Assembly (NCBI GenBank): GCA_016235255.1
Contig: JACRLM010000031.1
Location: forward strand, 43,763-107,762
Direction of reading: 5' to 3'
Length of the DNA stretch: 64,000 nucleotides
Origin: Nitrospinota bacterium
GTDB lineage: Bacteria > Nitrospinota_A > UBA7883 > JACRLM01
The notes beneath the pieces are model-generated. The model did no database searches. It was not told where the DNA came from and was given only the letters and a program-made list of their open reading frames with translations. Positions 1-41,975 of the stretch are shown one piece after another (position 1 is the first letter of the stretch; each line of letters starts with the position of its first letter). The translations under genes were made by a program, and so were the position numbers.

Positions 1-334
1 CAATCGCCCGCGCCAGGTCGGACTCTTTCATCCCCACATTGCGCCGTTCCGTGGCGGGGTCGAGCGTAAGAAGCTTTTGTCCCGCCTTGATCGCATCCCC
101 CGGCTCGTATGGAAACTCGGTCACCTCGCCTGAAGCTTTCGATTTTATCTCCACCTGCGAATCCGGCTCTATGGCCCCAGTGGCGGACACGGCCAGTGTG
201 ATGTCCCCTTTTGCAATCCGGGCGGTCCTGGTCTTTTCATTCTTTCCGGACGTGCCGTTGAATTTGAAGACCCCCGCACCGGCGATAATCACCGCGAGGA
301 TGGTGACAATGGCGATAATCTTCTTTTTGTTCAT
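1..334 (-). CDS. HlyD-family membrane fusion protein (efflux periplasmic adaptor), N-terminal part; the 3' end runs off the window
   Basis: Minus-strand translation from the ATG at 334 gives MNKKKIIAIVTILAVIIAGAGVF...ARIAKGDITLAVSATGAIEPDSQVEIKSKASGEVTEFPYEPGDAIKAGQKLLTLDPA. This is a signal-anchor followed by the typical HlyD/MacA N-terminal biotinyl-lipoyl-like hairpin. The listed + ORF 39..410 is its antisense artefact. Confidence 0.55.
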   Translation of the reverse strand, partial: MNKKKIIAIVTILAVIIAGAGVFKFNGTSGKNEKTRTARIAKGDITLAVSATGAIEPDSQVEIKSKASGEVTEFPYEPGDAIKAGQKLLTLDPATERRNVGMKESDLARAI

Positions 335-663
335 CTTTGCATTGTATCATCGGGAAGCGCATCGGCATATGTCCGCGATTCAGACTAACGCCAAGATGAA
401 AACGACCTGAAAAAGGACACTGTAACTGTCCGCAAAGAAGTCAAATCGCCATAAGTTTATATCAAAGCAAACACAAAATGGGGGGCAGGAAGTTTCCGCG
501 CGACAGTCATCTTGATGATATTATTGAATTTATAAATAGACACCGCGCGAAAAACCGTTTGGCGTATTAATTGCTTAATATCATGGGCAGACTTGTCGGT
601 TTCATCCAAACGCTATTATATAAGTTGGAATACAACGATTTGAATTTGGTGGGGGTGTTTCTT

Positions 664-1671
664 ATGTTTCGCAGGGCGGTAGCAGGATTGGCGCTTGCCG
701 GGTTGATGATGATAGCTGGCTGCAGCGGGGTGGGCGGGGAGAATGACACTTCCACTTCGGGCTCCTCTTCTACCGGATCGGGCTCCACCAAGGACCTGAG
801 CAAGATAGGGCAGACCCCCGACCTGACCTGGCACAACGATTATATGACCGGCTCCCACGCAAACTATTCGTGCGGGATCACCTGCCACCCCACGGACACG
901 GCGCTCACAAAAACTTCGGCGCGGACCTCCGGCCAAACCAAACCGGGGATGGCGCTCACCTCCACCCGGTCGGAAATCTGCTCCCAGTGCCATATGAGCA
1001 ATTACAACGCCGCGTCCAACTTCAAACATTCCCAGAATAACGTGGGCACATACTGCAACTCGTGCCACTATTCGGACAGCTTCACCTCCCATTCGCGCGT
1101 GAGCCACACGGAATTCCACTCCGTCATCACCACGAACTGCGAAAGCTGCCACTCGAACAGGTATCCTTCATCGCACTCGTCCTCTGGCAGGACCTCTGGC
1201 TGCGCCTCGTGCCACCAGTATTCCAGCGGCTCGTGGGGTCTCTCGTCCGGCGGCGCGCACACTTATACCAGTGGCTGCTCCTCTTGCCACAGCCCGACCA
1301 CGAACCATTCCGGCAGGTCCTCAAGCTGCGAAACGTGCCACACATACCCGACATGGACGGTGGCGCATACTTATACCTCCGGCTGTTCCTCTTGCCACAG
1401 CCCGACAACAGACCATTCCGGCAGGTCCAGCAGTTGCGAAACGTGCCACACATACCCGACATGGGCATGGTCGCACCCGGACGTAACTTCCGGATGCTCC
1501 TCGTGCCATAGCGGCCACTACAGCCCCTACTCCTGCGAGGGGTGCCACACGAGGGGCTTAAGCTGGGACTTCAGCCACAACTCGGTGAGTTCCTCCAACT
1601 GTATCGCCTGCCACGCCGACGGGTATGGAGATGACGGCGGCGAGGGCGGCCACGGCGGCGGCGACAACTAA
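664..1671 (+). CDS. Secreted multiheme c-type cytochrome lipoprotein (~12 heme-binding motifs), Ser/Thr/His-rich
   Basis: Lipoprotein signal MFRRAVAGLALAGLMMIAGC with lipobox IAGC. There are 11 CXXCH motifs (CSQCH, CNSCH, CESCH, CASCH, CSSCH x3, CETCH x2, CEGCH, CIACH) plus one CX3CH (CGITCH) in ~335 aa. Many extra His residues could serve as distal ligands. A GGGGGTG RBS-like stretch lies 8 nt upstream of the ATG at 664. Confidence 0.6.
   Translation: MFRRAVAGLALAGLMMIAGCSGVGGENDTSTSGSSSTGSGSTKDLSKIGQTPDLTWHNDYMTGSHANYSCGITCHPTDTALTKTSARTSGQTKPGMALTSTRSEICSQCHMSNYNAASNFKHSQNNVGTYCNSCHYSDSFTSHSRVSHTEFHSVITTNCESCHSNRYPSSHSSSGRTSGCASCHQYSSGSWGLSSGGAHTYTSGCSSCHSPTTNHSGRSSSCETCHTYPTWTVAHTYTSGCSSCHSPTTDHSGRSSSCETCHTYPTWAWSHPDVTSGCSSCHSGHYSPYSCEGCHTRGLSWDFSHNSVSSSNCIACHADGYGDDGGEGGHGGGDN
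1255..1470 (+). repeat. Internal tandem duplication (2 x 108 bp, ~90% identical) inside the multiheme cytochrome gene
   Basis: Unit 1 at 1255-1362 and unit 2 at 1363-1470 each encode AHTYTSGCSSCHSPTT(N/D)HSGRSSSCETCHTYPTW, a two-heme module. Confidence 0.8.
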
Positions 1672-1842
1672 AAAGCGCTCCGGAAGGCTGTGCCCCAGAG
1701 AAATTTAATACCGTATTTGGTGGCGCCGGCCTGGCTTGCCCTTACCTCTTGCGGCGGGCCATCCGGGGTGGTTCGTGGGACCATGAGGCGGAAAGCCTTC
1801 GCATGACATTCCGGTGGGGTCTTCTGCCAGGACAGAAAGGAT

Positions 1843-3351
1843 ATGACAACGGATTCCGCTGCGCCATGTGACACGGGCCGTGACCGCATGGCGGATTACC
1901 CCGTCCTTTTCATCGCCGGAACGCTCATAGCGCTGGCCCAGTACTTCCTTTTGCAGGAGGTCACCGCGCTTACCGCCGGCACCGAAATCGTGATACTGCT
2001 CGTCACGGTGGCTTACTTTTCAGGATTTTCCATCGGATACACTCTTTCCGGACGGATCTCCGAACCGGCCATAATAAAACTGATCGCGCTTTTTTTTCTT
2101 TTGCACCTTACGTTCCCGTTTTCATTACGGCTCCTGGCCGGGGCGCTGCATGAAATGCTTCCCGGCCTTGCGGCGCTGGCGCTTTTGTTCGTCACGGCGT
2201 TTGCGATGGTCTCCGTTTTTTCGATCCTCCTCCCGGCGTACATAGACAGGCGCGGGCCGGCCTCGCTCCCGGCGCTGTACGCCACCGAGCTTTGCGGAAC
2301 CGCCTTCGGATTCGCCGTGATATTCGGCGTGGGGGCCGCCCAGGCTTACGCTGTGGCGGCGATTTACCATGTGGCGTTCGCGGCCCTGGTGGGCGCCGTG
2401 TTCTGGAACATGAAAGCGGCCTTGGCGGCGCTTGCATTGGCCGGTGTTTCCGTGTTCATGTCCTCTTCGATGGACCGGTGGTCGCTATCCTATTTCTATG
2501 AGCGCGCTTTCGGCGTCAAAGACGCCCAGACCCTCTACAGCGTGTACAGTCCATATCAGAAGGTGGACATTATCGAGGCAAAGTCCGGATCGCGAAGGCT
2601 GTACCTTAACGGGCTTTTGTTTTACGGCTCCGGCTCGCTGCGCCAGTTCAACCTGTACCTGACGAGGCTTCCGGTGGAGCTTGCCGCCCCGGCAAATACG
2701 CTTATCATAGGCTCGGGATCCATGGAGTCCGTCGCGTATGCGTCACAAAAATCGGCCAGCGTCACCACGGTGGAAATAGACGAGGCGGTGATAAAAGGGA
2801 GCCTGGCCTATTTCACAGATGTGAACATGGGCGGGAAAATACCCGGTTGGCGCTACGTGGTGGACGACGGCAAGCATTTCCTGGGATCGGGCGTGGAGAA
2901 ATATGACCTGATATCCGTGGACGTGCCTGCGCCTTTCACCATACAGACCGGGCTTGTATATTCGGAGGACTTCATGCGGCTTGCGCGCGGGAGGCTCTCG
3001 CCCAAAGGCGTTTTCTCAATTTCGTTGTGCGGCAGGATAGATGACGGAGGGATGATCGCCACGGCTGTGGCCGCCGCTGTGCTGAACACCTTTGACGGCG
3101 TGATAATCCACACTCCCGAAAAATCCCCATACAGTTTCGCGTTGGCCGGGCATAAACTCCCTTTCACAAAAGAGCAGGCCGCGCGATTGATCGGGCAGTA
3201 CGGCGGCGGGACCGTGAAAATAATGGACAAAGCCGAGGCGATGGCGGCGGTGGGGGGCGCAAAGCCGATCAGGTGGGACGATCCTAGCCTGCCGGTGAAG
3301 GCCAGCTTGCGGCGGACCGCGAAAAAATTCTTCCCCGCGGAGGGGAGATGA
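1843..3351 (+). CDS. Spermidine-synthase-like (polyamine aminopropyltransferase fold) protein fused to an N-terminal polytopic membrane domain
   Basis: The N-terminal ~200 aa are hydrophobic with multiple TM helices. The C-terminal half (YQKVDIIEAKSGSRRLYLNG...LIIGSGSMESVAYA...VTTVEIDEAVI...DLISVDVPAP) matches the SpeE-like Rossmann methyltransferase/aminopropyltransferase fold. AAAGGA lies upstream of the ATG at 1843. An alternative start is at 1888. Confidence 0.5.
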   Translation: MTTDSAAPCDTGRDRMADYPVLFIAGTLIALAQYFLLQEVTALTAGTEIVILLVTVAYFSGFSIGYTLSGRISEPAIIKLIALFFLLHLTFPFSLRLLAGALHEMLPGLAALALLFVTAFAMVSVFSILLPAYIDRRGPASLPALYATELCGTAFGFAVIFGVGAAQAYAVAAIYHVAFAALVGAVFWNMKAALAALALAGVSVFMSSSMDRWSLSYFYERAFGVKDAQTLYSVYSPYQKVDIIEAKSGSRRLYLNGLLFYGSGSLRQFNLYLTRLPVELAAPANTLIIGSGSMESVAYASQKSASVTTVEIDEAVIKGSLAYFTDVNMGGKIPGWRYVVDDGKHFLGSGVEKYDLISVDVPAPFTIQTGLVYSEDFMRLARGRLSPKGVFSISLCGRIDDGGMIATAVAAAVLNTFDGVIIHTPEKSPYSFALAGHKLPFTKEQAARLIGQYGGGTVKIMDKAEAMAAVGGAKPIRWDDPSLPVKASLRRTAKKFFPAEGR

Positions 3352-4089: not shown

Positions 4090-5349
4090 ATGGACGGAAA
4101 AATCGCGGTCCCGGCTTACATGGCGGACTTTGCATGCCTTGGCGGCGAGTGCGACATGACATGCTGCCGTGTATGGGATGTCCCCTATGATGACGCGGCG
4201 TTTGACCGCTTGCAATCGGCCATGAGCCGGGATGAGTGGGCCGCAACCCTGAAAAATTTCCGCGCTCCCGATGTGGAGATAAAGGGGGCGAAGAGCATAG
4301 TAAAACTGCGGCCGGACGGTTATTGCGTATTTTTCGATGACAAAGGGCTCTGTTCCATACAGGGGAAGTACGGGGAGATGCGCCTTGGCGACGTTTGCGC
4401 CAAATACCCGCGCCAGTTCATCGGAATCGGGAACAGGATAGAGATGGTCGGCTGCCTTTCATGTCCGGAAGCTGTCCGGGGCCTTATCGCCAAGGGGGCG
4501 GCGCATGTGGCGGTAAAAGAGCCCTCATCGCTGCCACGGCCGGACTTGCTCACGCTCAAGCATTTTGTGGACACATCGTCCGCAAGTCTTTACCAAAGCG
4601 CATTTGACGATGTGCGGGGCGTTCTGCTTCAGCTATTGCAGGACGCTTCCCATCCGTTGGACACGCGACTTTTTCTGGCCAGCTATTTCGCCTCCCGCAC
4701 ATCCACTTTCTTCAGGAAAGGGGCCGGACGTGAGCATGCCGGGAAATTGGCCGTGGAGATAAAGAATATATTGTCGTCTGCGGCGCAGATGGAGCTTAAG
4801 GCCGGTTTTGACTCGATCAGTTTTTCCAGCAAGCTTGCCGTCTCCACCATCCGCGGCGTTCTGGAAGTCCGGGCCAAAACAAAAAGCGTCTTCCCGGAAT
4901 ATGTGGAGCTTATCGGGAAAATCGCGGACCATTACGCAGGCGAATCCTCGTCGGACGCTCTCTGGAAAGCGTATGAAGGGAGCAAATCCGCCGCGCCGCA
5001 ATCAGTGCGGGACTATTTTGACAGGCTGCTCGGCAATTACTGCGCGGAGCATTTGTTGTCCACCCCATATATAGTTGAAGAGGAGCTTCTTTCGTACATC
5101 GTGCTGCTCCTTTTGCGGGTGGCGGCGCTGCGTTTCATTTTCTACAGCCATCCGGACATTTATGAATTTCAGCATGAGGTGGACAAAATTCCGGAGGAAG
5201 ATTTTTATGGACGTCTGGCCGTGAAGACAGTGGTCTTTTTCACGAAAAACCTGGAGCACAACCTGGGTTACATGGAAGAGGTCAAAAAAGCGCTTGGGGG
5301 CGGCGGGATGTTCTCGCTGGCGCACGCGGCGGTCTTTATCAGGATGTGA
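4090..5349 (+). CDS. FliB-like flagellin lysine-N-methylase (YkgJ / CxxCxxCC-type Cys-rich family)
   Basis: The N-terminal FACLGGECDMTCCRVWDV (C-x4-C-x3-CC) matches my recollection of Salmonella FliB (FSCSGSACRDHCCKGWKI). The second cluster CVFFDDKGLCSIQGKYGEMRLGDVCAKYPR matches the FliB CPYLDEHRLC...C.SYPR block, and LSCPEAVRGLI matches LSCPEAARIIL. Confidence 0.55.
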   Translation: MDGKIAVPAYMADFACLGGECDMTCCRVWDVPYDDAAFDRLQSAMSRDEWAATLKNFRAPDVEIKGAKSIVKLRPDGYCVFFDDKGLCSIQGKYGEMRLGDVCAKYPRQFIGIGNRIEMVGCLSCPEAVRGLIAKGAAHVAVKEPSSLPRPDLLTLKHFVDTSSASLYQSAFDDVRGVLLQLLQDASHPLDTRLFLASYFASRTSTFFRKGAGREHAGKLAVEIKNILSSAAQMELKAGFDSISFSSKLAVSTIRGVLEVRAKTKSVFPEYVELIGKIADHYAGESSSDALWKAYEGSKSAAPQSVRDYFDRLLGNYCAEHLLSTPYIVEEELLSYIVLLLLRVAALRFIFYSHPDIYEFQHEVDKIPEEDFYGRLAVKTVVFFTKNLEHNLGYMEEVKKALGGGGMFSLAHAAVFIRM

Positions 5350-10704: not shown

Positions 10705-10929
10705 TTATTTAATCAATTCCATGAATTCATCCAACGTCAGGCCAGCCTGCTCGATTATGTTCACCAGCGTTCCCTTTTTTATGTCCCTGTTCTGGTGATG
10801 GGGGACAACCACCCGGAAGCCCTCTTTCTTGAATATTTTATGGCTCCCCTTTTGCCGATGCTCGATAAAGCCCGCCTTCACCAAGGCTTTGACCACTTCA
10901 CGGCTTTTTAGCGTGGGAGTTTTCGTCAA
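10705..10929 (-). CDS. hicA: HicA-family type II toxin (mRNA interferase)
   Basis: 74 aa; KSREVVKALVKAGFIEHRQKGSHKIF...VVVPHH is typical of HicA. Confidence 0.8.
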   Translation of the reverse strand: MTKTPTLKSREVVKALVKAGFIEHRQKGSHKIFKKEGFRVVVPHHQNRDIKKGTLVNIIEQAGLTLDEFMELIK

Positions 10930-11147
10930 ACGCTGGCTTCCACCTCGAGGAACAAACGGTTTTCCTCCGGGACGGGCAATCCGTCCGCCTCCAAGCTTTC
11001 AATATAAAGGTCCATAGCTTCCTTGATGTTGGCTATGGCCTCATCATAAGTGTCCCCTTGTGAAATGCACCCGGGCAACGAAGGGACCAAAGCGGTGAAT
11101 CCCCCTTCTTCCTGTGGTTCAAGGATGACCTTGTAATAGCGTTTCAT
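10926..11147 (-). CDS. hicB: HicB-family antitoxin
   Basis: MKRYYKVILEPQEEGGFTALVPSLPGCISQGDTYDEAIANIKEAM is the HicB (UPF0150) N-terminal fold. GGAG lies 6 nt upstream of the ATG at 11147. There is a 4-nt overlap with hicA. Confidence 0.75.
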   Translation of the reverse strand: MKRYYKVILEPQEEGGFTALVPSLPGCISQGDTYDEAIANIKEAMDLYIESLEADGLPVPEENRLFLEVEASV

Positions 11148-11231
11148 GATATCTCCGCTTTCCAACAATTACCTGGCGGCAAGTTTCTTTGTTTATTATA
11201 GCTATCCCGCGCGCCGGGGAGCCATTTATAT

Positions 11232-25242: not shown

Positions 25243-26139
25243 TTAACGAATATCAACGATAATCAGGCAGTACAGCAGGGGGAGATGCACCAGGGAGAAA
25301 AAGAAGAGGCTCATCGCCACCTTCCTGCCCGAGAAAACAAACCACAGGGACAGAGAGAAGAACAGGACGCCGGCCGCCATTGCTCCGGCAAGGTAAAACA
25401 GCCCCGCCATCCCGACTACATAAGGCAGAATTGAGACCGCCGCAAGCACAAAGGCCCATATGGCTATCTGCCGCTTGGTCTCGTCCACCCCTCTTTTCAC
25501 CGGCAGGTTCATCACTCCGGCGCTTTTGTACTCATCCATGTACTTTAGGGCGAGCGACCAGAAATGCGGATGCTGCCAGGCGAATATTATCAGGAAAAGC
25601 GTGAGCGCCCAGATGTCCGGAACCGGCTTGATCGCCGCGTAACCTATCACCGGAGGAAGAGCCCCGCCCACGCCGCCCACAAAGGTGGCCAGCGGCGTGC
25701 TGCGCTTGGTCATCAAAGTGTACGGTATGACGTAAATGAACAAGGCCGCCGTGGAATATAGCGCGGCGGCCTTGTTTACATGTGCCGTAAGGATCACAAC
25801 GGAAATGGCGGAAAGCGCCAGCCCGCAATAAAGGGCCTTCAACGGGCTGATCAATCCGGAGGGGAGCGGCCGGCCTGAAGTTCGGCGCATGACAAAATCT
25901 ATATCTCTGTCGATATAGTTGTTCAATGCGGCGGCGCCCGCCGTGGAAAAAGCGGTCCCCAGAAGTGTCCAGAAGACAAGCGCGGGGGCGGGAAGCCCCC
26001 TTTGCGCTATGTACATCCCGGCCAGGGCGGAAACTATCACAAGCGCGATTATCCCCGGCTTTACAAGCGCAAGGTGGTCCAACAGGACCCCTTTAAGGCT
26101 GATCTGCCTCGCTTCAGCGGTGGATACGCGCCCGGACAT
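25243..26139 (-). CDS. ctaB: Protoheme IX farnesyltransferase (heme O synthase)
   Basis: UbiA-family motif NNYIDRDIDFVMRRTSGRPLPSG. The product is polytopic. Confidence 0.9.
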   Translation of the reverse strand: MSGRVSTAEARQISLKGVLLDHLALVKPGIIALVIVSALAGMYIAQRGLPAPALVFWTLLGTAFSTAGAAALNNYIDRDIDFVMRRTSGRPLPSGLISPLKALYCGLALSAISVVILTAHVNKAAALYSTAALFIYVIPYTLMTKRSTPLATFVGGVGGALPPVIGYAAIKPVPDIWALTLFLIIFAWQHPHFWSLALKYMDEYKSAGVMNLPVKRGVDETKRQIAIWAFVLAAVSILPYVVGMAGLFYLAGAMAAGVLFFSLSLWFVFSGRKVAMSLFFFSLVHLPLLYCLIIVDIR

Positions 26140-27033
26140 TTACGCCCTCGCCTCCTCTTGAACCAGCATGTTAAATCCAAGAAGCCCCGGGGCCGACCTG
26201 TAGGCCACCCAGCCGAGCAGCAGGAATCCAAAGGCGCCGTGGCCGACAATCAGGGGGAGGAACATGCCGGAATGCACGATTCCTATGCCCACCGCCCCCT
26301 GCGCCACCACGAGCGAAAACGTTATGACGGAATTGGCCACGTCGCTCTTGTCCTTTATCGCCTTTATCATATAACCGCCGGTGAAAAAGAACACCACATA
26401 CGCCATCAGCCGGTGGACAAAGTGAAGAGCGATACCCGGCTCCGCGAATTCCGGGATCACCTGGCCGTTGCAAAGCGGGAACTCCGCCGAGCAGGCCATG
26501 GCCGCCTGGCTGTACCTGACGAAAATCCCAAGGATCACCTGGAGAAGGATTATGGCGAACATCACAGTATAGACACTGTTTTCCTTCGCCGCCGGAGCCG
26601 TGTCCAGCCGCCGGTAGGCAAGGATCATGAGAATGAAAATGGCCGTGGCCACAATAATGTGGAACGAGATAACCATTATATGCAGAACGCCCTCAAGAAG
26701 CGGCGCCTCCAGCATGACGATCACCCCGCCGAATACCGCGCCAACCCCCAATAGCCCCAACGCCGACATCGTCAGCGCCCTGACAGGCCCCTTTGCCGTC
26801 AACCATACGGAAACCGTCGCGCCTAATATGAAAAGCCCTGTCGCGCCTCCAAGAAGCCTGTGACTCCATTCAATCCATGTCTGTATCTGAAGGGGAGGGA
26901 CTACCGTCCCGTAACACAACGGCCAGTCCGGACAACCCAGGCCGGATCCGGTCGTGGTGACCACGTTCCCCACCACCATAAGAATGTAAGTGAAAGCGAT
27001 TGAGAGCCCGATAAGTATCTTGTTCATGCGCAT
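26140..27033 (-). CDS. ctaA: Heme A synthase (COX15/CtaA)
   Basis: GSGLGCPDWPLCYG and conserved His-containing TM helices are present. Start chosen at MRMNK (ATG 27033) with AGGAA upstream. The stop abuts the ctaB start. Confidence 0.85.
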   Translation of the reverse strand: MRMNKILIGLSIAFTYILMVVGNVVTTTGSGLGCPDWPLCYGTVVPPLQIQTWIEWSHRLLGGATGLFILGATVSVWLTAKGPVRALTMSALGLLGVGAVFGGVIVMLEAPLLEGVLHIMVISFHIIVATAIFILMILAYRRLDTAPAAKENSVYTVMFAIILLQVILGIFVRYSQAAMACSAEFPLCNGQVIPEFAEPGIALHFVHRLMAYVVFFFTGGYMIKAIKDKSDVANSVITFSLVVAQGAVGIGIVHSGMFLPLIVGHGAFGFLLLGWVAYRSAPGLLGFNMLVQEEARA

Positions 27034-27158
27034 TGTTCCTCTACTGCTTTTAATGCTAACAAAGATGTATTTGAAAATATACGCAAACTTTATAAAGAAC
27101 GGCCCGGCTCCGGTATTATACCAGAGCCGGGACCGCATCATTCTACCAGGAACACGCC

Positions 27159-28742
27159 TTATATCGTGTGAGCAGTATGCTTACCGTAGTTATAAGGCGA
27201 CCAATCCGCCGACACGGTCGGAGGAGTGGGGAAGTTGCCGGCCCCCGGAGGATACACGGTGTGTGTCCACTCCAGCGACTTGGAACCCCACGGATTGTGA
27301 GGGGCCTTCTCGCCGGCGATGGCGCCGTGGATCCAGGTGATGATCGTGATGGCCATGCCAAGGGCGATGATAAGGGCGCCGACAGTGGCGATCTTCATCG
27401 CGCCTTCAAACTGCGGGAACATGGCATAGTCGAAATACCTCCTGGGCATCCCTTCCACGCCGATCCACATCAGCGGAGCGAAGGTCACGTTCACGCCGAT
27501 GAAATTGAGCAGGAAGCCCAGCTTGCCGAGGGTCTCGTTGTACATCCGGCCGGTCATAAGCGGGAACCAGAAATAGACCCCCGCAAACACCGCGAATGTG
27601 GCCATGATTCCCATTATGTAATGGAAGTGGGCCATAACGAAGTATGTCTCGGAAAGATGCAGCGTCATCGAGGTCATGGACAGCGGGATACCGGTCAGCC
27701 CGCCCGCCAGGATCAGGAACAGCTCGGAGGCCGCGTACAGCATCGGGGTGTTGTACTGGATGGAACCCTTGTACAGCGTCCCCACCATGGTCAAGACCAG
27801 CAGACCCACCGGGATGGAGATGATGATCGTCGTCATCATCATGCCGATCCTGAGCCAGTCCACAAGACCTGAAACGTACAGGTGGTGGGCCCACACGTCC
27901 GAACCGAGCACCACAGTCCCCCACACGCCGCCATAAACACAGGTCTTATAGTTGAATATGGGGTTGCGGGACATGGTGGAGAGTATCTCAAGGATGGTCC
28001 CGATGGCCGGCAGCAGAATAACGTACACCGCCGGGTGCGAATAGAACCAGAACAGGTTCTGGTATAAAAGCACGTCGCCACCCTGGGCCGGCGCGAAGAA
28101 CGCCGTGCCGAAATACTTGTCAAAGAGAACCAAAGTCACCGCCGCGGCGAGCACGGGGATGAAGATCAATTGCAGGACGAACGCGCCCAGAACGGTCCAC
28201 ACGAAGATGTTCAGTTGGTTCCAGCCCAGGCCTGGCGCCCTCATGTAGATCACGGTGCAAAGGAAGTTGACCGCGCCGAGGATGGACGAGAAGCCCATCA
28301 GGTGCACGGTGAACACGTAGAAAGAAGTGTTCCCGGCCGTCTGCACGGAGTACGGGGGATAGCCCGTCCACATGACATCAGGCGGATCCGGGATGACGAA
28401 AGTCAGAAGAGCAAGAACGATGGCGAACCAGAAGAGCCACACCGAGAACGAGTTGATCCTCGGGAAGGCCACGTCGTGCGCGCCTATCATTATCGGGATG
28501 AGGTAGTTCGCCAAAAACCCTGTCAGCCCCGGTATCAGGAACGCCAAGATCATCGCGGCGCCGTGGAAATACAACCATACGTTGTAGTTCGTGGCGTCGC
28601 TTGTGATTGTCGGCCCCAGGCCCGACTGTTCAAGCCGTATCAGAAGGGCCATTATCCCGGCGACAGCGAACGCCGCGATGGACCCTACCAGATACAGGAT
28701 GCCGATCCTTTTATGATCGGTTGAAAAAATCCAATCCTTCAT
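27159..28742 (-). CDS. ctaD: Cytochrome c oxidase subunit I
   Basis: MKDWIFSTDHKRIGILYLV, the heme-copper oxidase His ligands, and WAHHLYVSG.. / HFHYIMG motifs. AGGA RBS is present. Confidence 0.95.
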   Translation of the reverse strand: MKDWIFSTDHKRIGILYLVGSIAAFAVAGIMALLIRLEQSGLGPTITSDATNYNVWLYFHGAAMILAFLIPGLTGFLANYLIPIMIGAHDVAFPRINSFSVWLFWFAIVLALLTFVIPDPPDVMWTGYPPYSVQTAGNTSFYVFTVHLMGFSSILGAVNFLCTVIYMRAPGLGWNQLNIFVWTVLGAFVLQLIFIPVLAAAVTLVLFDKYFGTAFFAPAQGGDVLLYQNLFWFYSHPAVYVILLPAIGTILEILSTMSRNPIFNYKTCVYGGVWGTVVLGSDVWAHHLYVSGLVDWLRIGMMMTTIIISIPVGLLVLTMVGTLYKGSIQYNTPMLYAASELFLILAGGLTGIPLSMTSMTLHLSETYFVMAHFHYIMGIMATFAVFAGVYFWFPLMTGRMYNETLGKLGFLLNFIGVNVTFAPLMWIGVEGMPRRYFDYAMFPQFEGAMKIATVGALIIALGMAITIITWIHGAIAGEKAPHNPWGSKSLEWTHTVYPPGAGNFPTPPTVSADWSPYNYGKHTAHTI

Positions 28743-28817
28743 GCCTATATCCTTTCATTTCAAGCCTATTTTCCGTAAAGCCGACGAACCCCAAGCCCGC
28801 CGGCCTCTTTAAAACCG

Positions 28818-29639
28818 TTACTTTCCGGCGGCCGGAGCAGCCGGAGCGGCGGCGCCTTCAGCTGCCGGAGCGGCCGGGGCAGCGCCCTCAGCCGGAGCGG
28901 CCGGAGCCGGAGTTGCTGCGCCACTCTTGGCAAGGATCATTTCCTCAAACTTGGCTGCGGGAATGACCTTCACCTTGCCGAACATGTTCGAATGACCAAC
29001 GCCGCAATACTCGGTGCAGGTGAGCACGTTCTCCCCGATCTGCTTGGGCAGGAACCACTCGTAAGTGATGCGCCCAGGCATAACGTCTTCCTTCACGCGG
29101 TAATCGGGAAGGAAGAAGGAGTGGACCACGTCTTCGCTGTGCATCCGGAGGACAACAGGCTGCCCCTGAGGAACGAAAAGCTGCGGCCTGCCGTTGGCGT
29201 CCGCCTCGGCGACGACTCCGTTGCCGTAGTCGAACTCCCAGTTGTACATCATTGCGGTCAGTTTGACTTCCCTGGCGTTCACAGGGACGGTCCTCTGGTT
29301 GATCCACAGCTTGAAGCCATTGGCGGCCAGATACATATCGTCCGCCAGGAACACAAACACCGGGACAAGCGTCCAGGCCAGCGAGCCGCCCAGCGACAAT
29401 CCCGGAAGGCTGCCCTCTTCGTTCTCGCTCTTCCTCACGAAAGACACGAGCATGTAAATCGATATCAGCCCGAAAACAACGCCAATCGCGCCCAGGTCTA
29501 GCACCAGATGGCCCCAAAGATTGTTCCAACCCTCGGTGTGGTCATGGATAGCCCCCTCGGCGGCCGGTGCGGCTGATGACGCCATAGCCGTCAATGGAGC
29601 GGCAGCCATCATAGCCGCCGTAAACACCCATTTCTTCAT
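28818..29639 (-). CDS. ctaC: Cytochrome c oxidase subunit II (CuA) with a C-terminal Ala/Pro-rich tail
   Basis: CTEYCGVGHSNM is the CuA motif. Two N-terminal TM helices. The C-terminus is PAPAAPAEGAAPAAPAAEGAAAPAAPAAGK. The start overlaps the SCO1 stop (ATGA). Confidence 0.9.
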   Translation of the reverse strand: MKKWVFTAAMMAAAPLTAMASSAAPAAEGAIHDHTEGWNNLWGHLVLDLGAIGVVFGLISIYMLVSFVRKSENEEGSLPGLSLGGSLAWTLVPVFVFLADDMYLAANGFKLWINQRTVPVNAREVKLTAMMYNWEFDYGNGVVAEADANGRPQLFVPQGQPVVLRMHSEDVVHSFFLPDYRVKEDVMPGRITYEWFLPKQIGENVLTCTEYCGVGHSNMFGKVKVIPAAKFEEMILAKSGAATPAPAAPAEGAAPAAPAAEGAAAPAAPAAGK

Positions 29640-30487
29640 ATTTTAGTCTCCTTGCCTCTCTTCACTTTTTTCCTCTGAATATTGGCGGCGAATAAAAACG
29701 CCGCCACTCCCGTCAACAATGAACCGAAAGAAACGAAAAGCGGATAATTGAGCCGGTACTTGCCATCCTTGAAGTTATAGCTGTAGCACATGCTCATCGC
29801 TATATTGCCCGCGTCCGCCGGCTTGAGCTGCTCGAACTTGCTTTCCAATATCGCAAGCTCCATGTCCCGCGCGTCGGAAACCTGGCTTTGAAGGATTCGA
29901 AGGACCCTGCCCTCGGGGGAAATGAAATAATACGCGCTTGAGTGGAAGAACATCCTGTCGGCGGGAGACCAGAAGAACTTGAAACCAACATTCGAAGTGA
30001 GCTTTTTGATGTCCTCATGATCCTTGAAGGTGGCCACATACCAGCTGCCCTTCATGTCCGATGGAATCCCAAGGCTCTTCGAAAATATTTCCGCGCTCGA
30101 CGCATTGTCGTTCTTGTCGAAAGACAGGGTCAACACGGAAAAGTCCTTGCCGATCTTCACGTTCTTTAACGCCTGCGCCTTGTCGAGCACCTTTTTCAGG
30201 TCGCCGTTGAAGGCCGGGCAGAATCCGTCGCAAGAATAATAGGAAAGGACCATGATCACAGGCCTGCCACGCAGGTCTTTCATGGAAAATTCCTTCCCGT
30301 CGCTCCCTACGAAGGTCAGTCCGCCGTCAAGCTTGGTCCCGAGGACGTTGATCTCGTCAACCAGCAAGGTCGCCGGATCAAGCTCGGACTCGGGCGGGCG
30401 GAATCCCTGGGCGCTCCCTTGCGCCGCGAAAAACAGGATAAGCGCGGCCGCCATCACAACGGCCCGGTGCTTCCCAAACGTGTACAC
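29636..30487 (-). CDS. SCO1/SenC copper chaperone (thioredoxin-like)
   Basis: YYSCDGFCP is the CxxxC copper-binding motif. A signal peptide or anchor is at the N-terminus. The gene sits between oxidase subunits III and II. GTG start at 30487; an alternative ATG is 11 codons in. Confidence 0.75.
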   Translation of the reverse strand: MYTFGKHRAVVMAAALILFFAAQGSAQGFRPPESELDPATLLVDEINVLGTKLDGGLTFVGSDGKEFSMKDLRGRPVIMVLSYYSCDGFCPAFNGDLKKVLDKAQALKNVKIGKDFSVLTLSFDKNDNASSAEIFSKSLGIPSDMKGSWYVATFKDHEDIKKLTSNVGFKFFWSPADRMFFHSSAYYFISPEGRVLRILQSQVSDARDMELAILESKFEQLKPADAGNIAMSMCYSYNFKDGKYRLNYPLFVSFGSLLTGVAAFLFAANIQRKKVKRGKETKI

Positions 30488-30502
30488 TTGATTATCCCCG
30501 AA

Positions 30503-31276
30503 TTACCAGATGTAAACCTGGCTCACAACGAAGAACCAAACGATATCAACGAAGTGCCAGTAAATCCCGGCCCCCTTCACGAAAGTGTGGCTCACAGCCC
30601 CGCCAAGCGCCGGTATCAGTATCGCGATGAACGCGCACAGGCCGACGAGAACGTGGGAAGCGTGGAAGCCGGTTATCGAGTAGAACGCCGTGCTCTTCGC
30701 GTTGGTGCCCCACACGAAACCTTCGCTGAGAAGATGGTTGTATTCATAGGCCGTGCAGCCAAGGAATACGGCGCCCAATGCTATGCTCACCATCAGCCAG
30801 GTGTTGAACCCGCCCTTGTCTCCCTCTTCGATCCTCATTTCACCGAGGTGGTATGTGACCGAGGAAGTGACCAGTATCACGGTCATAATCAGAGGAAGGG
30901 TCACGCCTATCTCCGGAGAACCCGCAGGCGGCCACACGTCGGCGGACATCCTCATTGTCCAGTAAGCGGCGAAAAGAGACAGGAATATCATGACTTCCGA
31001 AACGATGAAGATCGGAAGGCCTGTCAGGGAGTAGCCGTGCTCATGATCCCTGTTTGCGATGCCTTCCTTCGTCCAACCAGCGACCCCCCAGATCAAAAGC
31101 GGCGTCCCAATGCCAAGGGCGGCTATGCCCATGGTGGCGTTGTGATACTGGAAAAAGAGGCCGAATGCGATTGGAATCGCGAAAAAGATGCCCGCCACCA
31201 GAATCAGCGGATAAACGCTTGATTCCCAGTGATGGACGGTATGGCCTTGGCCACCATGGCCCTCGTTATGCGCCAT
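30503..31276 (-). CDS. ctaE: Cytochrome c oxidase subunit III
   Basis: HHWESSVYPL, FYSITGFHASHVLVG and WHFVDIVWFFVVSQVYIW are present. Start chosen at MAHNEG (ATG 31276), preceded by GGGGGAGGG 5 nt upstream. The longer listed ORF (to 31339) lacks an RBS. Confidence 0.9.
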   Translation of the reverse strand: MAHNEGHGGQGHTVHHWESSVYPLILVAGIFFAIPIAFGLFFQYHNATMGIAALGIGTPLLIWGVAGWTKEGIANRDHEHGYSLTGLPIFIVSEVMIFLSLFAAYWTMRMSADVWPPAGSPEIGVTLPLIMTVILVTSSVTYHLGEMRIEEGDKGGFNTWLMVSIALGAVFLGCTAYEYNHLLSEGFVWGTNAKSTAFYSITGFHASHVLVGLCAFIAILIPALGGAVSHTFVKGAGIYWHFVDIVWFFVVSQVYIW

Positions 31277-31705
31277 AAAAACCCTCCCCCATAATGTTAG
31301 TTGATAAAAACCTAAAGCCCACCCACGCGCGCAATGCATATACGCGTGGAATTAAACCGTTTTTTCTGACCGATCCAGGACACTTTAGTTAACAAGACTT
31401 TGTTTGAATTTCTCCCCCCCCACTTTCGCTGAACCCATTTAGCGCCGGATGCCCCTCTCAAGGCCCGCGCGTTTATGAAATCAACGATTTGGAGATAAAT
31501 CAAGGTCTCTATATACCTTGATGTTCTTGACTTTTTACATTAACCGGCATGTATTGTCAAGTGATTACTTTTCGGGAAGGGAAAATTACTTGTTTACGGA
31601 TTGACAGCGCTTACAAGACAAAAACGAGGACATATGTCCACAATTGCGCAAGTTTTTTCCGGGAGCCTTTCAAAATCGTGGCCCGATGGCTCCAATGCGC
31701 CGTTT

Positions 31706-32142: not shown

Positions 32143-32823
32143 ATGAGACATAAACAATTGTCCCTTCGGGAAAAGAAGTTCGCCAGAACCAAGCAAAAAC
32201 TGCTGGATGCGGCGCTGGCCCTTATGGCGCAAAAACCACTGGAAGAAGTGACCGTCGCCGAAATATGCCATGCGGCGGAGGTCTCATACGCCACCTTCTT
32301 CAACTATTTCGCCAGAAAAACAGACCTGCTTGTTTATTTCATCCAGCTTTGGAGCGTGGAAGTTTCATGGCGCGCAAGGATGACCTACGAAGAAGGTGGG
32401 GGGAGCGTTGCGGCCATCGAGGCGATTTTCGCCCATACCGCCAGCCTTTGCGAGAAAAACCCGGAGGTGATGGAGGAGATCGTCGCGTTCCAGTCCCGAA
32501 AAAGGAACATGGAAAACATCTCGGCCATTCCTCTCACCATTGCGGAAAAAGCACTCCGGTTCCCCCAGATCGAAGATTTCCAGGAATTGGGGGACTTGGG
32601 ATTGGAATCGGTATTGCCCCCCCTCATCAAAACGGCCATCGCTAATGGCGAACTTCCCTCCGGGGCGGATGTGGACGGGATTATGCTTTCGCTGGCGGTG
32701 ATATTCCTTGGAACGCCGGTGGTTGTGGCGTCCCACAGGATGATAGGGCTTGGCGAGGCTTACAAACGGCAGTTGGCGCTCCTATGGACGGGGGCACGTG
32801 GGCGCCACGCCGGGAATATATAG
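32143..32823 (+). CDS. TetR/AcrR-family transcriptional regulator
   Basis: VAEICHAAEVSYATFFNYFARKTDLL is the TetR HTH. Possible promoter TTGACT at 32107-32112 with a -10-like TATATT 8 nt before the ATG (near-leaderless). Confidence 0.75.
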   Translation: MRHKQLSLREKKFARTKQKLLDAALALMAQKPLEEVTVAEICHAAEVSYATFFNYFARKTDLLVYFIQLWSVEVSWRARMTYEEGGGSVAAIEAIFAHTASLCEKNPEVMEEIVAFQSRKRNMENISAIPLTIAEKALRFPQIEDFQELGDLGLESVLPPLIKTAIANGELPSGADVDGIMLSLAVIFLGTPVVVASHRMIGLGEAYKRQLALLWTGARGRHAGNI

Positions 32824-32834
32824 GAGGATCGAAA

Positions 32835-34334
32835 ATGAATGCGCTCACGGAGGTTGATGATGGGAGGTTTTCACTTTCAAACAAGGGATTTCATTTAACG
32901 CTTCTGGCAGGGGGGGCGTTGTTGTTCCTTTCCATGTACCGGTTTAGCGCCCAGGAACTGGCGTGGGTGGCGTTCGCCCCTTTCCTTGTGGCAATGACCG
33001 CCCGGAGCGACTTTAAAGGGCATTTATGGCTGCTTTTTTATCTGACCATTGCCATGAACCTGACTGTGGCGAAAATAATCTCTCCTCCGGTGATCCTGCC
33101 GGTCCCTCTTTTCGCTGTCCCGGCGGCGGTCTATGTATTCGCGGGAATATCTCTCACCGCCGCCATATCAAGACGGCTGGGCGTCCGGTGGGGGATATAC
33201 TTCTTCCCAGCTATCACTGTGGCGGCGGAGTGGCTAAATTACAGTTTCACTGAACTGGGGACGTGGGGCGCCCTTGCGCTCACCCAGGTGGACAACCTTC
33301 CTCTGGCGCAGTCAGGCTCGCTGGCGGGCATCGCGGGCCTTTCGTTTCTAGTTGCGCTAGGCTCATCAGTGACGGCGGCGGTTGCTATCTATGGGCCGCG
33401 CGCCGTGAAAGGGGACATCTTCGCGTTCATCATCCTCTTCATCGCAACGCAGGCGTATGGCAATCTGCGGCTGCTCACCGATCCTCCATTAAAGAACGCC
33501 ACCGTTGCGGCGGTCTCATCGCCTTTGCCACTTGACCTCATACTCGAAATGAGGAAGAGCACCGACATTTTCAGGCCGTATGACAGCGTCCTTTTCGATC
33601 GGACCGGCAAGGCCGCCGATATGGGCGCAAAGACCGTGGTATGGAATGAAGCGGGCACGCTTCTGCGTAAAGATGAAGAAGAGGCGTTCGTTGCCAGAGG
33701 GGCGGCGCTTGCCCGCGAAAAGGGGATATCGCTGGTGATGGCTATTGGTGTGGTAAATTCGTTCGAGCCGTTTGTGTGGGAGAATAAATATCACTTCATC
33801 ACAAGTTCGGGGAAAGTGGCGGACGTTTATCACAAGCGCCATCCCGTGCCGGGCGAAGGACCGATACCCGGCGAGGCCAAAGCGGCGGTGGTGGAGGTGG
33901 ACGGAGTGAAGATGACCGGCGCGATCTGCTACGACTACGATTTCCCGCAAATAGCGCGGGACAACGCCCAGAGCGGGGCGGACATGGTTTTGCTCCCGTC
34001 GTCCGACTGGCCGGGGATAGACCCTGTCCATTCGATGATGGCCCGGTACATGGCGCTGTCCAACGGGATGCCGATGGTGCGTTCGGTCCGCCGGGCCACA
34101 TCCTTCGCCTCCGACCAGTATGGCAGGACGGCCGCCTCCATGCGGTTTGACGGCGACGCGGACGGAATCATGATCGCCGACGTTCCCGTTGGGCGCGTTC
34201 CCACATTGTACGCCGACACGGGGGACGTGCTGCCTGTAATGGCGCTCATTTTCTGCGCCGTTTCGGGGCTGGCGGCTTTAATAATACCCAAAGTCCGGAG
34301 ACGGCTTCAACCGGAGGAATTCAGCCGCATATAA
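32835..34334 (+). CDS. lnt: Apolipoprotein N-acyltransferase
   Basis: N-terminal multi-TM region plus a CN-hydrolase domain (VVWNEAGT, ICYDYDFP, LLPSSDWPG). AGGAGG RBS lies before the ATG at 32835. Confidence 0.8.
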   Translation: MNALTEVDDGRFSLSNKGFHLTLLAGGALLFLSMYRFSAQELAWVAFAPFLVAMTARSDFKGHLWLLFYLTIAMNLTVAKIISPPVILPVPLFAVPAAVYVFAGISLTAAISRRLGVRWGIYFFPAITVAAEWLNYSFTELGTWGALALTQVDNLPLAQSGSLAGIAGLSFLVALGSSVTAAVAIYGPRAVKGDIFAFIILFIATQAYGNLRLLTDPPLKNATVAAVSSPLPLDLILEMRKSTDIFRPYDSVLFDRTGKAADMGAKTVVWNEAGTLLRKDEEEAFVARGAALAREKGISLVMAIGVVNSFEPFVWENKYHFITSSGKVADVYHKRHPVPGEGPIPGEAKAAVVEVDGVKMTGAICYDYDFPQIARDNAQSGADMVLLPSSDWPGIDPVHSMMARYMALSNGMPMVRSVRRATSFASDQYGRTAASMRFDGDADGIMIADVPVGRVPTLYADTGDVLPVMALIFCAVSGLAALIIPKVRRRLQPEEFSRI

Positions 34335-40385: not shown

Positions 40386-41975
40386 ATGTCTATTTCCATT
40401 GACGGGCTGGTCTCAGGGACTAACTATACGTCCTTGATCCAGCAACTGATTGACATCGAGAGGCAGCCCATAAAGCTAATCGAGAACAAGCAGACCATCC
40501 TCAAGGAAGAAAAGACCGCCTGGTCGGCCATCAGCCCCAAGCTCGTTTCGCTTGAGTCCGCCGCCAATGACTTAAAATCGGCCCAGAAGTTCTCCAGCCT
40601 GTCCGCCTCGTTCCAGAACAACAACTCCGCCGGCGGGTCCGTCCTGTCGGTCACGGCCACCACATCCGCGGCGGCAGGCACATATAACGTAAAGGTCACT
40701 CAACTAGCCGCCAACCAGATTTCCGCCAGCAGCCAGACTTTTGCGAGCATGACCACAGCCGCCGGGCTTTCGGGGACCTTGAGCATCGGCGCCACCAACG
40801 TGAGCATCACTTCCGGGCAGAGCCTGTCGGATATTTTGAGCAACATAAACAATTCGGCCGCCGCAGCCACGGCGACAATAGTCAACTCCGGAACGACCGC
40901 AAGCCCACTATACAAGCTTGTCCTCTCCGGCGATGACACCGGGGCCGCCGGGGCATTCACCGCATCAACGGTGATGGACGCGGGAGCGCTTAGTTTCACC
41001 ACCACGCAGTCCGCCCAGAACGCCCTGTTCACCGTCAACGGCATATCCATAAGCAAGGACACGAACACGGCCACTGACGTCATTTCCGGGGTGACGCTAA
41101 ACCTGCAGACCTCCGGGTCCGGCGCCGTGACGGTCGCCACCGACTATGCCGGGATCGTCACGAAGGTAGAAAAATTCGTCGCCGCGTACAATGACGCGCT
41201 CAACCTGATCTCCAACGAGCTCAAGTACGACCCGTCCACAAAGTCGAAAGGGGCGCTTTTCGGCAATAACGCCCTGATGACCATACAAAACCAGCTGCGC
41301 TCCATAGTCAGCGGCGCGGTGCCCGGACTGGACCCCACTGACACAAGCACGTTATCGACGCTGTCGCAGGTGGGGATCATGATGGACCGGAATTTCCAGC
41401 TCACGGTGGACACAGCCGAGCTTTCCTCGGCGCTGCAGACCAATTTTGCCCAGGTCCAGAACCTTTTCGCCCCCAGCGGAAGCGGTACCTACACTTTCGT
41501 GGCCGCCTCTGGCAAAACACAGGGCGGGACATACAGCACCAGGGTGTCCGGCGGGGTGTTCCAGATGAAGCTTTCCGGCACAAGCGACTGGATATCCCTC
41601 ACGCAGGACGGGAACTTCGCCCTTGGGCAGGCCGGAACATCGCTTGAAGGGCTGCTAATCAGGACAGGATCGCTGGTGGAAAGCGCCACGGGCCAGATGA
41701 AAATAACCGTGGGCGTGGCCGAGCGCGTGGCCACCAACGCTTCGACTTACACGGAATATTCGGCTGAAGGGCTGATCTACACCCAGACCAAGAGCATAGA
41801 TGACCGGGACAGGGAATATCAGGACAACATTGACGCCTTGAACGTGAGAATCACGAAAAAGGAAGTGGACCTGAAAGCTAAATTCGCCAATCTGGAGGTC
41901 TTGCTGGCAAAGATGAGCTCCCAGCAGCAATACCTTAACAACCAGTTGACGAACCTGAACAAGAACTGGAGATAA
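40386..41975 (+). CDS. fliD: Flagellar filament cap protein FliD (hook-associated protein 2)
   Basis: The N-terminus ISIDGLVSGTNYTSLIQQLIDIERQPIKLIENKQ and the C-terminal coiled coil (...DNIDALNVRITKKEVDLKAKFANLEVLLAKM) are characteristic of FliD. Confidence 0.85.
   Translation: MSISIDGLVSGTNYTSLIQQLIDIERQPIKLIENKQTILKEEKTAWSAISPKLVSLESAANDLKSAQKFSSLSASFQNNNSAGGSVLSVTATTSAAAGTYNVKVTQLAANQISASSQTFASMTTAAGLSGTLSIGATNVSITSGQSLSDILSNINNSAAAATATIVNSGTTASPLYKLVLSGDDTGAAGAFTASTVMDAGALSFTTTQSAQNALFTVNGISISKDTNTATDVISGVTLNLQTSGSGAVTVATDYAGIVTKVEKFVAAYNDALNLISNELKYDPSTKSKGALFGNNALMTIQNQLRSIVSGAVPGLDPTDTSTLSTLSQVGIMMDRNFQLTVDTAELSSALQTNFAQVQNLFAPSGSGTYTFVAASGKTQGGTYSTRVSGGVFQMKLSGTSDWISLTQDGNFALGQAGTSLEGLLIRTGSLVESATGQMKITVGVAERVATNASTYTEYSAEGLIYTQTKSIDDRDREYQDNIDALNVRITKKEVDLKAKFANLEVLLAKMSSQQQYLNNQLTNLNKNWR

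Follow-up and report, generated by a model that had tools for sequence, protein, structure and literature searches.

A predicted multiheme cytochrome c lipoprotein family of Nitrospinota with a candidate role in an outer-membrane electron conduit

We report that a 64,000-nucleotide stretch of DNA from a Nitrospinota bacterium (GenBank assembly GCA_016235255.1, contig JACRLM010000031.1, positions 43,763 to 107,762 of the forward strand; referred to as the window) encodes, close to its start, a predicted dodecaheme c-type cytochrome lipoprotein of 335 amino acids. By its profile matches the protein is a member of the multiheme c3/c7 superfamily, and in the searches made here its family was found only in metagenome-assembled genomes (MAGs) of Nitrospinota. 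In several of these relatives the gene stands at the head of a cluster that also encodes a giant multiheme cytochrome and a predicted outer-membrane barrel, whereas the copy in the window has neither beside it. We judge the chances to be even that the cytochrome, anchored in the outer membrane and facing outwards, forms the end of an electron conduit. In the literature that was searched the family and its associated barrel and giant cytochrome are noticed only in passing, and the cytochrome is in no curated family.

Translation of the open reading frame reproduced exactly the eleven CXXCH motifs (starting at residues 106, 131, 159, 180, 205, 222, 241, 258, 278, 291 and 313) and the single CX3CH motif (CGITCH, residues 70-75) that the first-pass annotation, a reading of the sequence alone, had counted in a protein of about 335 amino acids. 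The composition is extreme, with 20.6% Ser, 11.6% Thr, 11.3% Gly, 8.1% His and 7.5% Cys, such that these five residues make up 59% of the protein; Cys, His, Ser and Thr together reach 47.8%, in agreement with the earlier estimate of well over 40%. At this composition chance alone would produce 0.15 CXXCH motifs (the average over 20,000 shuffles was likewise 0.15, and none had more than 4), and 24 of the 25 Cys residues are part of heme motifs while the remaining one, Cys20, is the lipobox Cys. Covalent attachment of twelve hemes is thus predicted, the CX3CH motif accounting for one and the CXXCH motifs for the other eleven.

The N-terminus passed a test for the lipobox pattern [LVI][ASTVI][GAS]C at the end of the signal peptide (IAGC; acylation predicted), and together with the Gly-rich tail at the other end this bears out the description of the protein as a secreted, Gly-tailed lipoprotein. 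A low-complexity tether follows the lipid anchor, and sequence conservation in the alignment begins at approximately residue 44 with the block DLSxIGxxPDxSWH. The start codon at position 664 had been named as a possible weak point. For this start region (window positions 664-708) the public NCBI model (HZB29_03645, 'hypothetical protein', Nitrospinae bacterium; 321 amino acids) begins at Met15, with which the signal peptide would be lost. We consider the start at 664 to be correct because the N-termini of the orthologs align with it, a Shine-Dalgarno-like stretch lies upstream, and three independent assemblies of other sequencing runs, which contain the identical 1008 nucleotides, each call the 335-amino-acid product. 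The practical yield is a corrected start codon, and a protein annotated as hypothetical can now bear the functional label 'multiheme cytochrome c lipoprotein'.

With respect to protein class, the Pfam models PF14537 (Cytochrom_c3_2) and PF14522 (Cytochrome_C7) matched the cytochrome with 36.2 and 31.5 bits, against gathering cut-offs of 25 and 24.8, and these matches, the twelve motifs and the lipobox agree with the first-pass description of a heme-dense secreted cytochrome c lipoprotein. The comparison with multiheme families that had been proposed as a check gave a divided result, since the superfamily was recovered but the curated cut-offs of the OmcA/MtrC, MtrA/DmsE and STC families were not reached. 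Specifically, the score was 20.4 bits for the MtrC/MtrF domain II/IV (PF22113; cut-off 30), 19.8 bits for the MtrA/DmsE decaheme model TIGR03508 (cut-off 192.2) and 25.3 bits for the CctA/STC equivalog NF047727 (cut-off 180), the last being a local, module-level match; the OmcA/MtrC models of NCBIfam did not match at E<=10, nor did the nanowire_3heme model TIGR04257 match. Each heme takes up 26 residues on average in the mature protein and 22 within its core, fewer than the approximately 33 residues per heme of MtrA, cited as the lowest value among typical multiheme cytochromes (PMC5566968).

The cytochrome has 15 His residues outside the heme motifs, approximately 13 of which are conserved or nearly so in an alignment of 20 family sequences, and the alignment has no conserved Met. 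All twelve hemes can therefore have two His ligands and probably do, as expected for an electron-transfer rather than a catalytic type of multiheme cytochrome. The best match of the single sequence among solved structures was to the Shewanella small tetraheme cytochrome STC (residues 149-227 over its four heme sites; E=2e-4), and the family profile matched best to the Geobacter dodecaheme 'nanowire' GSU1996 (3ov0; E=1.3e-6, 31 bits); both likenesses are weak and at the level of modules. An AlphaFold2 model computed with the 20-sequence alignment was unusable, with a mean per-residue confidence (pLDDT) of 44 and a predicted template-modelling score (pTM) of 0.28, and a chain-like heme geometry was consequently taken from the solved relatives.

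The non-canonical CX3CH site noted in the first reading is real. Its two Cys and its His are invariant (Table 1) and it alternates with CXXCH among the orthologs, reading CGxxCH (mostly CGxTCH) in 11 of the 20 sequences and CxxCH in 9. Since the insertion is kept across proteins that are about 50% identical, the alignment indicates a conserved heme site and no chance motif, and CX3CH is on this evidence a one-residue insertion inside a conserved CXXCH site. Nearly all CX3CH forms fall within the clade of the window cytochrome, while the basal branches with clusters read CXXCH; one of three outlying tandem paralogs (L017_b) reads CGDTCH at the same site, so that the insertion is not strictly clade-specific. 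A switch from CX2CH to CX3CH has likewise been described at heme 1 of a branch of MtrA (preprint, bioRxiv 10.1101/2025.05.29.656830), and CX3CH is regularly included when comparative studies count heme sites. With its change from CXXCH to CX3CH at a conserved position, the family lends itself to testing how tolerant of its substrates cytochrome c maturation is.

Among 5.8 billion proteins approximately 21 orthologs were found at E<1e-40, and all those with a taxonomic name are from Nitrospinae/Nitrospinota MAGs; a scan of one genome per species gave 10 loci, all from Nitrospinota with the exception of one record labelled Nitrospirae. The samples were from groundwater, a hydrothermal vent and a subsea tunnel. 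Family members have 8-14 heme sites (one outlier with 17 sites resembles an assembly with repeated segments), the number of Cys residues equals twice the number of heme sites plus one in nearly all of them, and the lipobox is present in 16 of the 17 members read from their loci (loci of relatives carry L numbers), the exception being a sequence without a complete N-terminus. In the alignment (A1) the tether differs from member to member in both length and sequence. Moreover, all members have an acidic C-terminal tail, which nearly always ends in DD and contains up to approximately 20 Asp residues; such a tail could serve in cation capture, in mineral contact or as a sorting signal. In a subset the tail adds a short hydrophobic 'LLxWLx' end, and some distant cytochromes with an N-terminal membrane anchor share its Asp-Asp ending (compared were P0002-P0021, P0022, P0023 and P0028).

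An exhaustive profile search against 1.84 billion representative sequences returned only a handful of full-length matches (approximately 240-330 residues). It also returned 260 proteins with E-values below 1e-30, the majority of them giants (1,000-3,900 residues) in which the repeat region was matched up to 33 times. This suggests a widely distributed building block that is only rarely arranged into a compact lipoprotein. Distant matches of 450-580 amino acids were rejected as orthologs, because they were either periplasmic 21-heme cytochromes of the PCC3 type (see below) or membrane-anchored cytochromes, the latter having NapC/NirT- or NrfB-like Pfam matches followed by many di-heme repeats. 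One Nitrospinota MAG contig (L017, 112-2799) encodes three tandem cytochrome paralogs with 8-10 heme sites each, CX4CH included, and nothing else, and the MAG nNGHbin12 has two cytochrome copies on separate contigs (L008 and L009); the family hence expands by duplication of genes as well as of the cassette to which we turn now.

Part of the window gene is a tandem duplication of a 108-bp di-heme module. TRF reported a period of 108 and 1.9 copies with 88% matches (score 336), and a pairwise DNA alignment showed the two copies to be identical at 92 of 108 nucleotides and 32 of 36 amino acids. There is one copy in the closest orthologs, which have 10 hemes, and there are three in others with 14 hemes. 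The sequence comparison thus indicates that the duplication is recent and added two hemes to the window cytochrome, and since copy number differs among orthologs, the length of the wire changes by gain and loss of cassettes. The family is a compact natural example of how the length of a heme wire can change by cassette duplication (8, 10, 12 or 14 hemes).

Two gene arrangements were found around the family. In the first, shared by the window and the loci L001, L006, L014 and L015, a MacA-like gene lies divergently upstream and there is no other cytochrome near. In the second (L004/L012, L005/L016, L007/L013, L010 and L011) the cytochrome gene comes first, sometimes followed by a paralog encoding an 8-heme lipoprotein, and then come genes for a giant cytochrome and a barrel; the L010 contig ends inside the giant-cytochrome gene. 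The giant cytochrome has a Sec signal, 763-914 residues, 30-36 heme motifs and 14-16% lysine. The barrel gene overlaps that of the giant cytochrome and encodes a protein of 418-422 residues with a signal peptide and a C-terminal YxF, which had no match in Pfam or NCBIfam. The model of a close homolog (the alignment representative), with a pLDDT of 82, shows a signal peptide followed by 22 beta-strands, and in a Foldseek search against the PDB this model matched generic large barrels (FimD/PapC ushers, AlgE and porins) with template-modelling scores of <=0.54. As the matches were generic only, we take the barrel as confirmed without assigning it to a specific family, and the partner is accordingly described as a predicted 22-strand outer-membrane barrel. 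Approximately 13 clusters of the barrel family were detected among the 5.8 billion proteins (10 matches with the single sequence and 11 with a profile), and all named ones are from Nitrospinota.

In mtrCAB the order of genes is mtrC-mtrA-mtrB, that is, lipoprotein cytochrome, periplasmic cytochrome and barrel. The second arrangement has the same order. When loci were tested for adjoining barrel and multiheme cytochrome genes, orthologs in relatives had both and the window locus did not. In a rough neighbour-joining tree the gene of L007 was sister to the clade of the window cytochrome and the other cluster-bearing genes were basal, which suggests that the orphan arrangement is probably derived; L007 holds both the barrel cluster and, divergently, the SpeE-like gene pair that lies downstream of the cytochrome in the window. 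Directly upstream of the cluster in L004 (1-7675) we found genes for a molybdopterin oxidoreductase, a 4Fe-4S subunit and a NarJ-like chaperone as well as a sigma-54 two-component system, which hints at co-regulated respiratory modules. Unexplained multiheme cytochrome clusters have been noted in Nitrospinaceae MAGs from Fe/Mn-oxidising tunnel biofilms (PMC11995701), and L015 is from the MAG OFTM379, a name following the scheme used in that study.

Which known systems does this resemble? The PCC3 cluster comprises an inner-membrane protein with two WX3HX13H motifs, a periplasmic cytochrome with 21-27 hemes, a repeat-rich, predicted extracellular cytochrome and a large porin (He et al. 2017, PMC5566968; see also a survey of Gallionellaceae, PMC10734462). 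A complete cluster of this type on a gammaproteobacterial contig (L021, 7078-16183), recovered as a distant match, served as positive control; it encodes the inner-membrane protein with both motifs, a 21-heme cytochrome of 520 residues (P0065), a 54-heme cytochrome of 1311 residues and a porin of 890 residues. The family profile matched the 54-heme protein 17 times with 17-40 bits each (profile positions approximately 166-242, a di-/tetra-heme unit), as compared with at most 14.2 bits for the PCC3 periplasmic cytochrome and at most 17.8 bits for the Nitrospinota giant cytochrome. The window cytochrome and the PCC3 extracellular cytochrome are both rich in Thr, Ser and Gly and poor in Lys, both have very few residues per heme, and in both heme number varies by gain and loss of repeats. 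However, the window protein is far smaller (12 hemes compared to 10-63) and lipid-anchored, while the L021 protein has an ordinary signal peptide. Furthermore, the Nitrospinota clusters are without the inner-membrane protein with two WX3HX13H motifs, their barrel of approximately 420 amino acids is unrelated to the 890-residue porin (no significant BLASTP match), and their giant cytochrome is Lys-rich with 30-36 hemes where the PCC3 counterpart has 21-27. The repeat module is hence shared with the PCC3 extracellular type, but the clusters of this family represent a different system.

MtrC and OmcA are likewise lipoprotein multiheme cytochromes, and the gene order in five Nitrospinota relatives is like that of mtrC-mtrA-mtrB, but the window cytochrome lacks their beta-barrel domains, is half their size and has its hemes more densely packed. 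The MtrB barrel has 26 strands as compared with the 22 predicted for the Nitrospinota partner. Shewanella STC/CctA (PDB 2k3v and 1m1p) resembles the window cytochrome in its heme density of approximately 22 residues per heme; it is a soluble periplasmic shuttle of 91 amino acids, and the window protein carries three times the hemes on a lipid anchor. GSU1996 has the same number of hemes, a near-equal length (318 amino acids) and repeated c7-type modules, but it is soluble and periplasmic, has neither lipid anchor nor acidic tail, and its match was weak and motif-driven; moreover, it has His-Met hemes while the family described here has no conserved Met. OmcB of Geobacter sulfurreducens is a twelve-heme lipoprotein, and the barrel of the relatives is small (approximately 420 amino acids) like OmbB (PMC5566968). 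No sequence relationship between OmcB and the window cytochrome was detected in any search; OmcB is approximately twice as long, and its periplasmic partner OmaB has 8 hemes as opposed to the 30-36 of the Nitrospinota giant cytochrome. Taken together, the outer-surface likeness to cytochromes of extracellular electron transfer that the first-pass annotation had pointed to stands in part, in that orthologs head barrel clusters and the repeat matches that of PCC3, while membership in the OmcA/MtrC family and a barrel at this locus do not.

In the reading that we favour, the cytochrome would leave the cytoplasm by the Sec pathway, be lipidated and receive its twelve hemes, and would then be sorted to the outer membrane. 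There it would form an elongated heme wire of approximately 10 nm, by analogy with GSU1996 and MtrA, built of STC/c7-like modules and the repeated 36-residue di-heme unit, with its hemes packed at approximately 22-26 residues each, a flexible linker of approximately 25 residues at its base and the acidic tail at its end. Electrons may be handed between an envelope conduit and extracellular or insoluble partners such as Fe or Mn minerals. Because the window encodes an aerobic oxidase (A-type heme-copper), uptake of electrons from Fe(II) or Mn(II) phases appears at least as plausible as reduction.

Several observations weigh against this reading. There is no giant cytochrome or barrel homolog beside the cytochrome in the window, and word-indexed searches with sequence and profile returned no barrel under the locus-tag prefixes HZB29_ (the genome of the window, a MAG that is possibly incomplete) or HY751_ (the closest relative with a long contig, 2.2 Mb). 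The likeness to STC, GSU1996 and PCC3 rests on short Cys/His-rich repeats of high compositional bias, and the extracellular place of the PCC3 cytochrome is itself a prediction (PMC5566968). The low confidence of the structural model leaves the linear-wire geometry resting on analogy. In addition, sorting to the outer membrane is putative, the residue at lipobox position +2 being Ser in the window protein and Asp in one ortholog. With the barrel and the giant cytochrome missing both from the neighbourhood and from the search results for this genome and its clade, the conduit is supported for the family and unproven for this copy, and the gene, separated from both in its clade, must work with other partners or alone.

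The same observation makes a periplasmic shuttle a serious rival. The protein would then be a dodecaheme wire or capacitor held by its lipid on the inner leaflet of the outer membrane or on the inner membrane, never surface-exposed, which carries or stores electrons between periplasmic oxidoreductases and the respiratory chain; we regard this as possible, though on balance doubtful. STC and GSU1996 are both periplasmic, and they are the closest solved relatives. For this genome and clade no barrel or giant cytochrome was detected, either beside the gene or in the searches. Apart from the cytochrome gene, the redox genes of the window are confined to an aerobic oxidase operon needing a separate cytochrome c donor, and the long flexible tether would equally fit a periplasmic 'fishing line'. 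On the other hand, the repeat module and the composition fit the extracellular-type PCC3 cytochrome far better than the periplasmic type, and orthologs head clusters with the gene order of MtrCAB and OmaB/OmbB/OmcB, two characterised porin-cytochrome systems in which the lipoprotein cytochrome is extracellular (PMC5566968).

That the gene is a decaying relic, useless after the loss of its partners and drifting or unexpressed, would agree with the absence of the barrel and giant-cytochrome genes from the locus, and a deletion has indeed occurred next to it. In L001 an intact FGE-sulfatase-domain lipoprotein gene of 234 amino acids lies between the cytochrome and the SpeE-like gene, of which the window has kept a remnant of 42 codons that is 76% identical to the end of the L001 protein and runs past the point where the SpeE-like gene is annotated to begin; approximately 190 codons have thus been deleted. 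Yet the cytochrome reading frame itself is intact with the twelve motifs, the lipobox and the conserved His residues all kept, the module was duplicated recently and in frame, and three assemblies have the identical sequence. An intact gene, with 43-51% mutual identity and every Cys conserved, is retained in five or more genomes of the orphan clade, which indicates purifying selection, and we find decay very unlikely. A Cys/His/Ser-rich protein that binds metal or sulfur without heme, the alternative offered in the first reading, draws on the extreme Cys and His content and on the acidic His-containing tail, which could chelate cations. Every Cys outside the lipobox is, however, spaced as in CXXCH or CX3CH, the relation of two Cys per heme site plus one holds for nearly all family members, the Pfam multiheme models score above threshold and the STC alignment covers four heme sites in register. 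With no free Cys and enough conserved His for twelve bis-His hemes, this alternative found no support and is hardly credible.

The positions of the features discussed are given in Table 1. The first reading had noted that the cytochrome adjoins an HlyD-type adaptor, with no cytochrome-maturation or porin-cytochrome genes around it, and this holds within the window: the neighbour (334..2) is a MacA-like protein, no second open reading frame with CXXCH was found in the 64 kb, and a scan of its 41 large open reading frames detected no ccm/ccs genes. Longer contigs, reached via the downstream SpeE-like protein with a gain of 1.75 kb upstream of the window, contain the rest of the MacA-like gene and then a LolD/MacB-type (LolD/MacB/DarD) ABC ATPase. 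The full-length MacA-like protein (L018) scored 165 bits on TIGR01730 (cut-off 94.9), and this generic RND-adaptor subfamily cut-off was passed while no equivalog cut-off was reached and no permease was in view. The neighbour therefore looks like part of a MacAB-like pump. Although it is syntenic with the cytochrome as a divergent gene in five genomes, we treat this as mere neighbourhood and not as mechanism, since the gene is absent beside the cluster-bearing orthologs.

Downstream, a spacer of 171 bp follows the cytochrome gene, which is on the same strand as the next genes; no plus-strand terminator was detected between it and the SpeE-like gene, and a promoter and terminator scan of positions 300..2000 gave nothing beyond shuffled sequence. 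The SpeE-like gene adjoins the cytochrome gene in both the window and L001 and, in divergent orientation, also in L007, and the gene for a 179-amino-acid membrane protein accompanies it in L001 and L007. The matches of the SpeE-like protein in NCBIfam stayed below equivalog cut-offs, and the 179-amino-acid protein had no match in Pfam or NCBIfam; the latter has only two His residues, too few for a di-heme b-type protein such as the inner-membrane protein of PCC3. The pair was rejected as an inner-membrane redox partner, as it has no heme or His motifs and no redox domains and is divergent in L007. Likewise, the open reading frame of 419 amino acids at 4090..5349 was considered as the barrel on account of its matching size and dismissed, since it scored 152 bits (cut-off 85) as a FliB-type flagellin lysine methylase.

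Table 1. Features of the cytochrome locus (positions in the window) and of the cytochrome/barrel clusters of relatives (positions in the respective locus)
Feature	Position	Strand	Evidence or remark
MacA-like membrane-fusion protein, 5' part ('HlyD-type adaptor')	2..334	-	Pfam, NCBIfam; cut by window edge
Shine-Dalgarno-like G-rich stretch GGTGGGGG	648..655	+	8 nt before ATG at 664; read from sequence
Predicted dodecaheme c-type cytochrome lipoprotein, coding sequence	664..1671	+	335 aa plus stop; open reading frame and motif count
Predicted signal peptide (residues 1-19) and lipobox Cys20	664..723	+	L-M-M-I-A-G before Cys; sequence MFRRAVAGLALAGLMMIAG followed by C
Low-complexity Ser/Gly/Thr tether, residues 21-44	724..795	+	between lipid anchor and first conserved block
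Heme site 1, CGITCH (residues 70-75)	871..888	+	C70, C74 and H75 invariant in 20 sequences
108-bp (36-aa) di-heme module, tandem duplication	1255..1470	+	unit HTYTSGCSSCHSPTT[ND]HSGRSSSCETCHTYPTW
Acidic Gly/Asp/Glu/His-rich C-terminal tail ('Gly tail'), residues 318-335	1615..1668	+	sequence ADGYGDDGGEGGHGGGDN
FGE-sulfatase-domain (SUMF1/EgtB/PvdO-like) lipoprotein gene remnant, 3' end, pseudogene fragment	1740..1865	+	tblastn
Membrane-domain-fused spermidine-synthase-like (SpeE-like) protein, 502 aa	1843..3351	+	Pfam Spermine_synth 40.3 bits
Polytopic membrane protein, 179 aa	3348..3887	+	overlaps end of SpeE-like gene
Giant cytochrome/barrel cluster, L004	9127-12677		
Giant cytochrome/barrel cluster, L005	9130-14058		
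Giant cytochrome/barrel cluster, L007	5809-9806		
Giant cytochrome/barrel cluster, L011	5025-8590		

As to the remainder of the window, the FliB-type flagellin lysine-N-methylase gene (4090-5349, plus strand) lies three genes downstream of the cytochrome and a fliD gene is found at 40386-41975 (plus strand), suggesting that the organism is flagellated and probably methylates its flagellin. An operon for an A-family heme-copper oxidase (25243-31339, minus strand) encodes COX3, a 283-amino-acid protein without family match, COX2, COX1, CtaA and CtaB/UbiA; subunit II is without CXXCH, so that there is no fused cytochrome c and a separate donor is needed. The apolipoprotein N-acyltransferase Lnt is encoded at 32784..34334, in keeping with a lipid-anchored cytochrome, and other genes are of the housekeeping kind (argG, recG, lipopolysaccharide/O-antigen genes, TatC, flagellar genes and heme a synthesis). 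A HicA/HicB pair (10705-11168, minus strand) lies between a gene for a 315-amino-acid protein and one for a bifunctional PfkB-kinase/cytidylyltransferase (HldE-like), and another HicAB pair is present near the ortholog in L001.

Finally, the data permit a broader proposal, which we put forward tentatively and think rather unlikely to hold as a whole, namely that Nitrospinota have an undescribed class of conduit made of a 22-strand barrel, a Lys-rich periplasm-spanning cytochrome with 30-36 hemes and a lipoprotein surface wire with 8-14 hemes, of which the window would contain a stand-alone copy. The 36-residue di-heme cassette would tune the length of the wire, the acidic tail would bind cations, and the window copy would be a stand-alone surface module with a partner not yet recognised, through which an aerobic groundwater member of Nitrospinota might draw electrons from minerals of Fe(II)/Mn(II) or pass electrons on to oxides. 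Nitrospinota have hitherto been treated as specialist nitrite oxidizers that live by aerobic nitrite oxidation. If the family forms part of an envelope-spanning conduit, some of them could exchange electrons with iron or manganese minerals.

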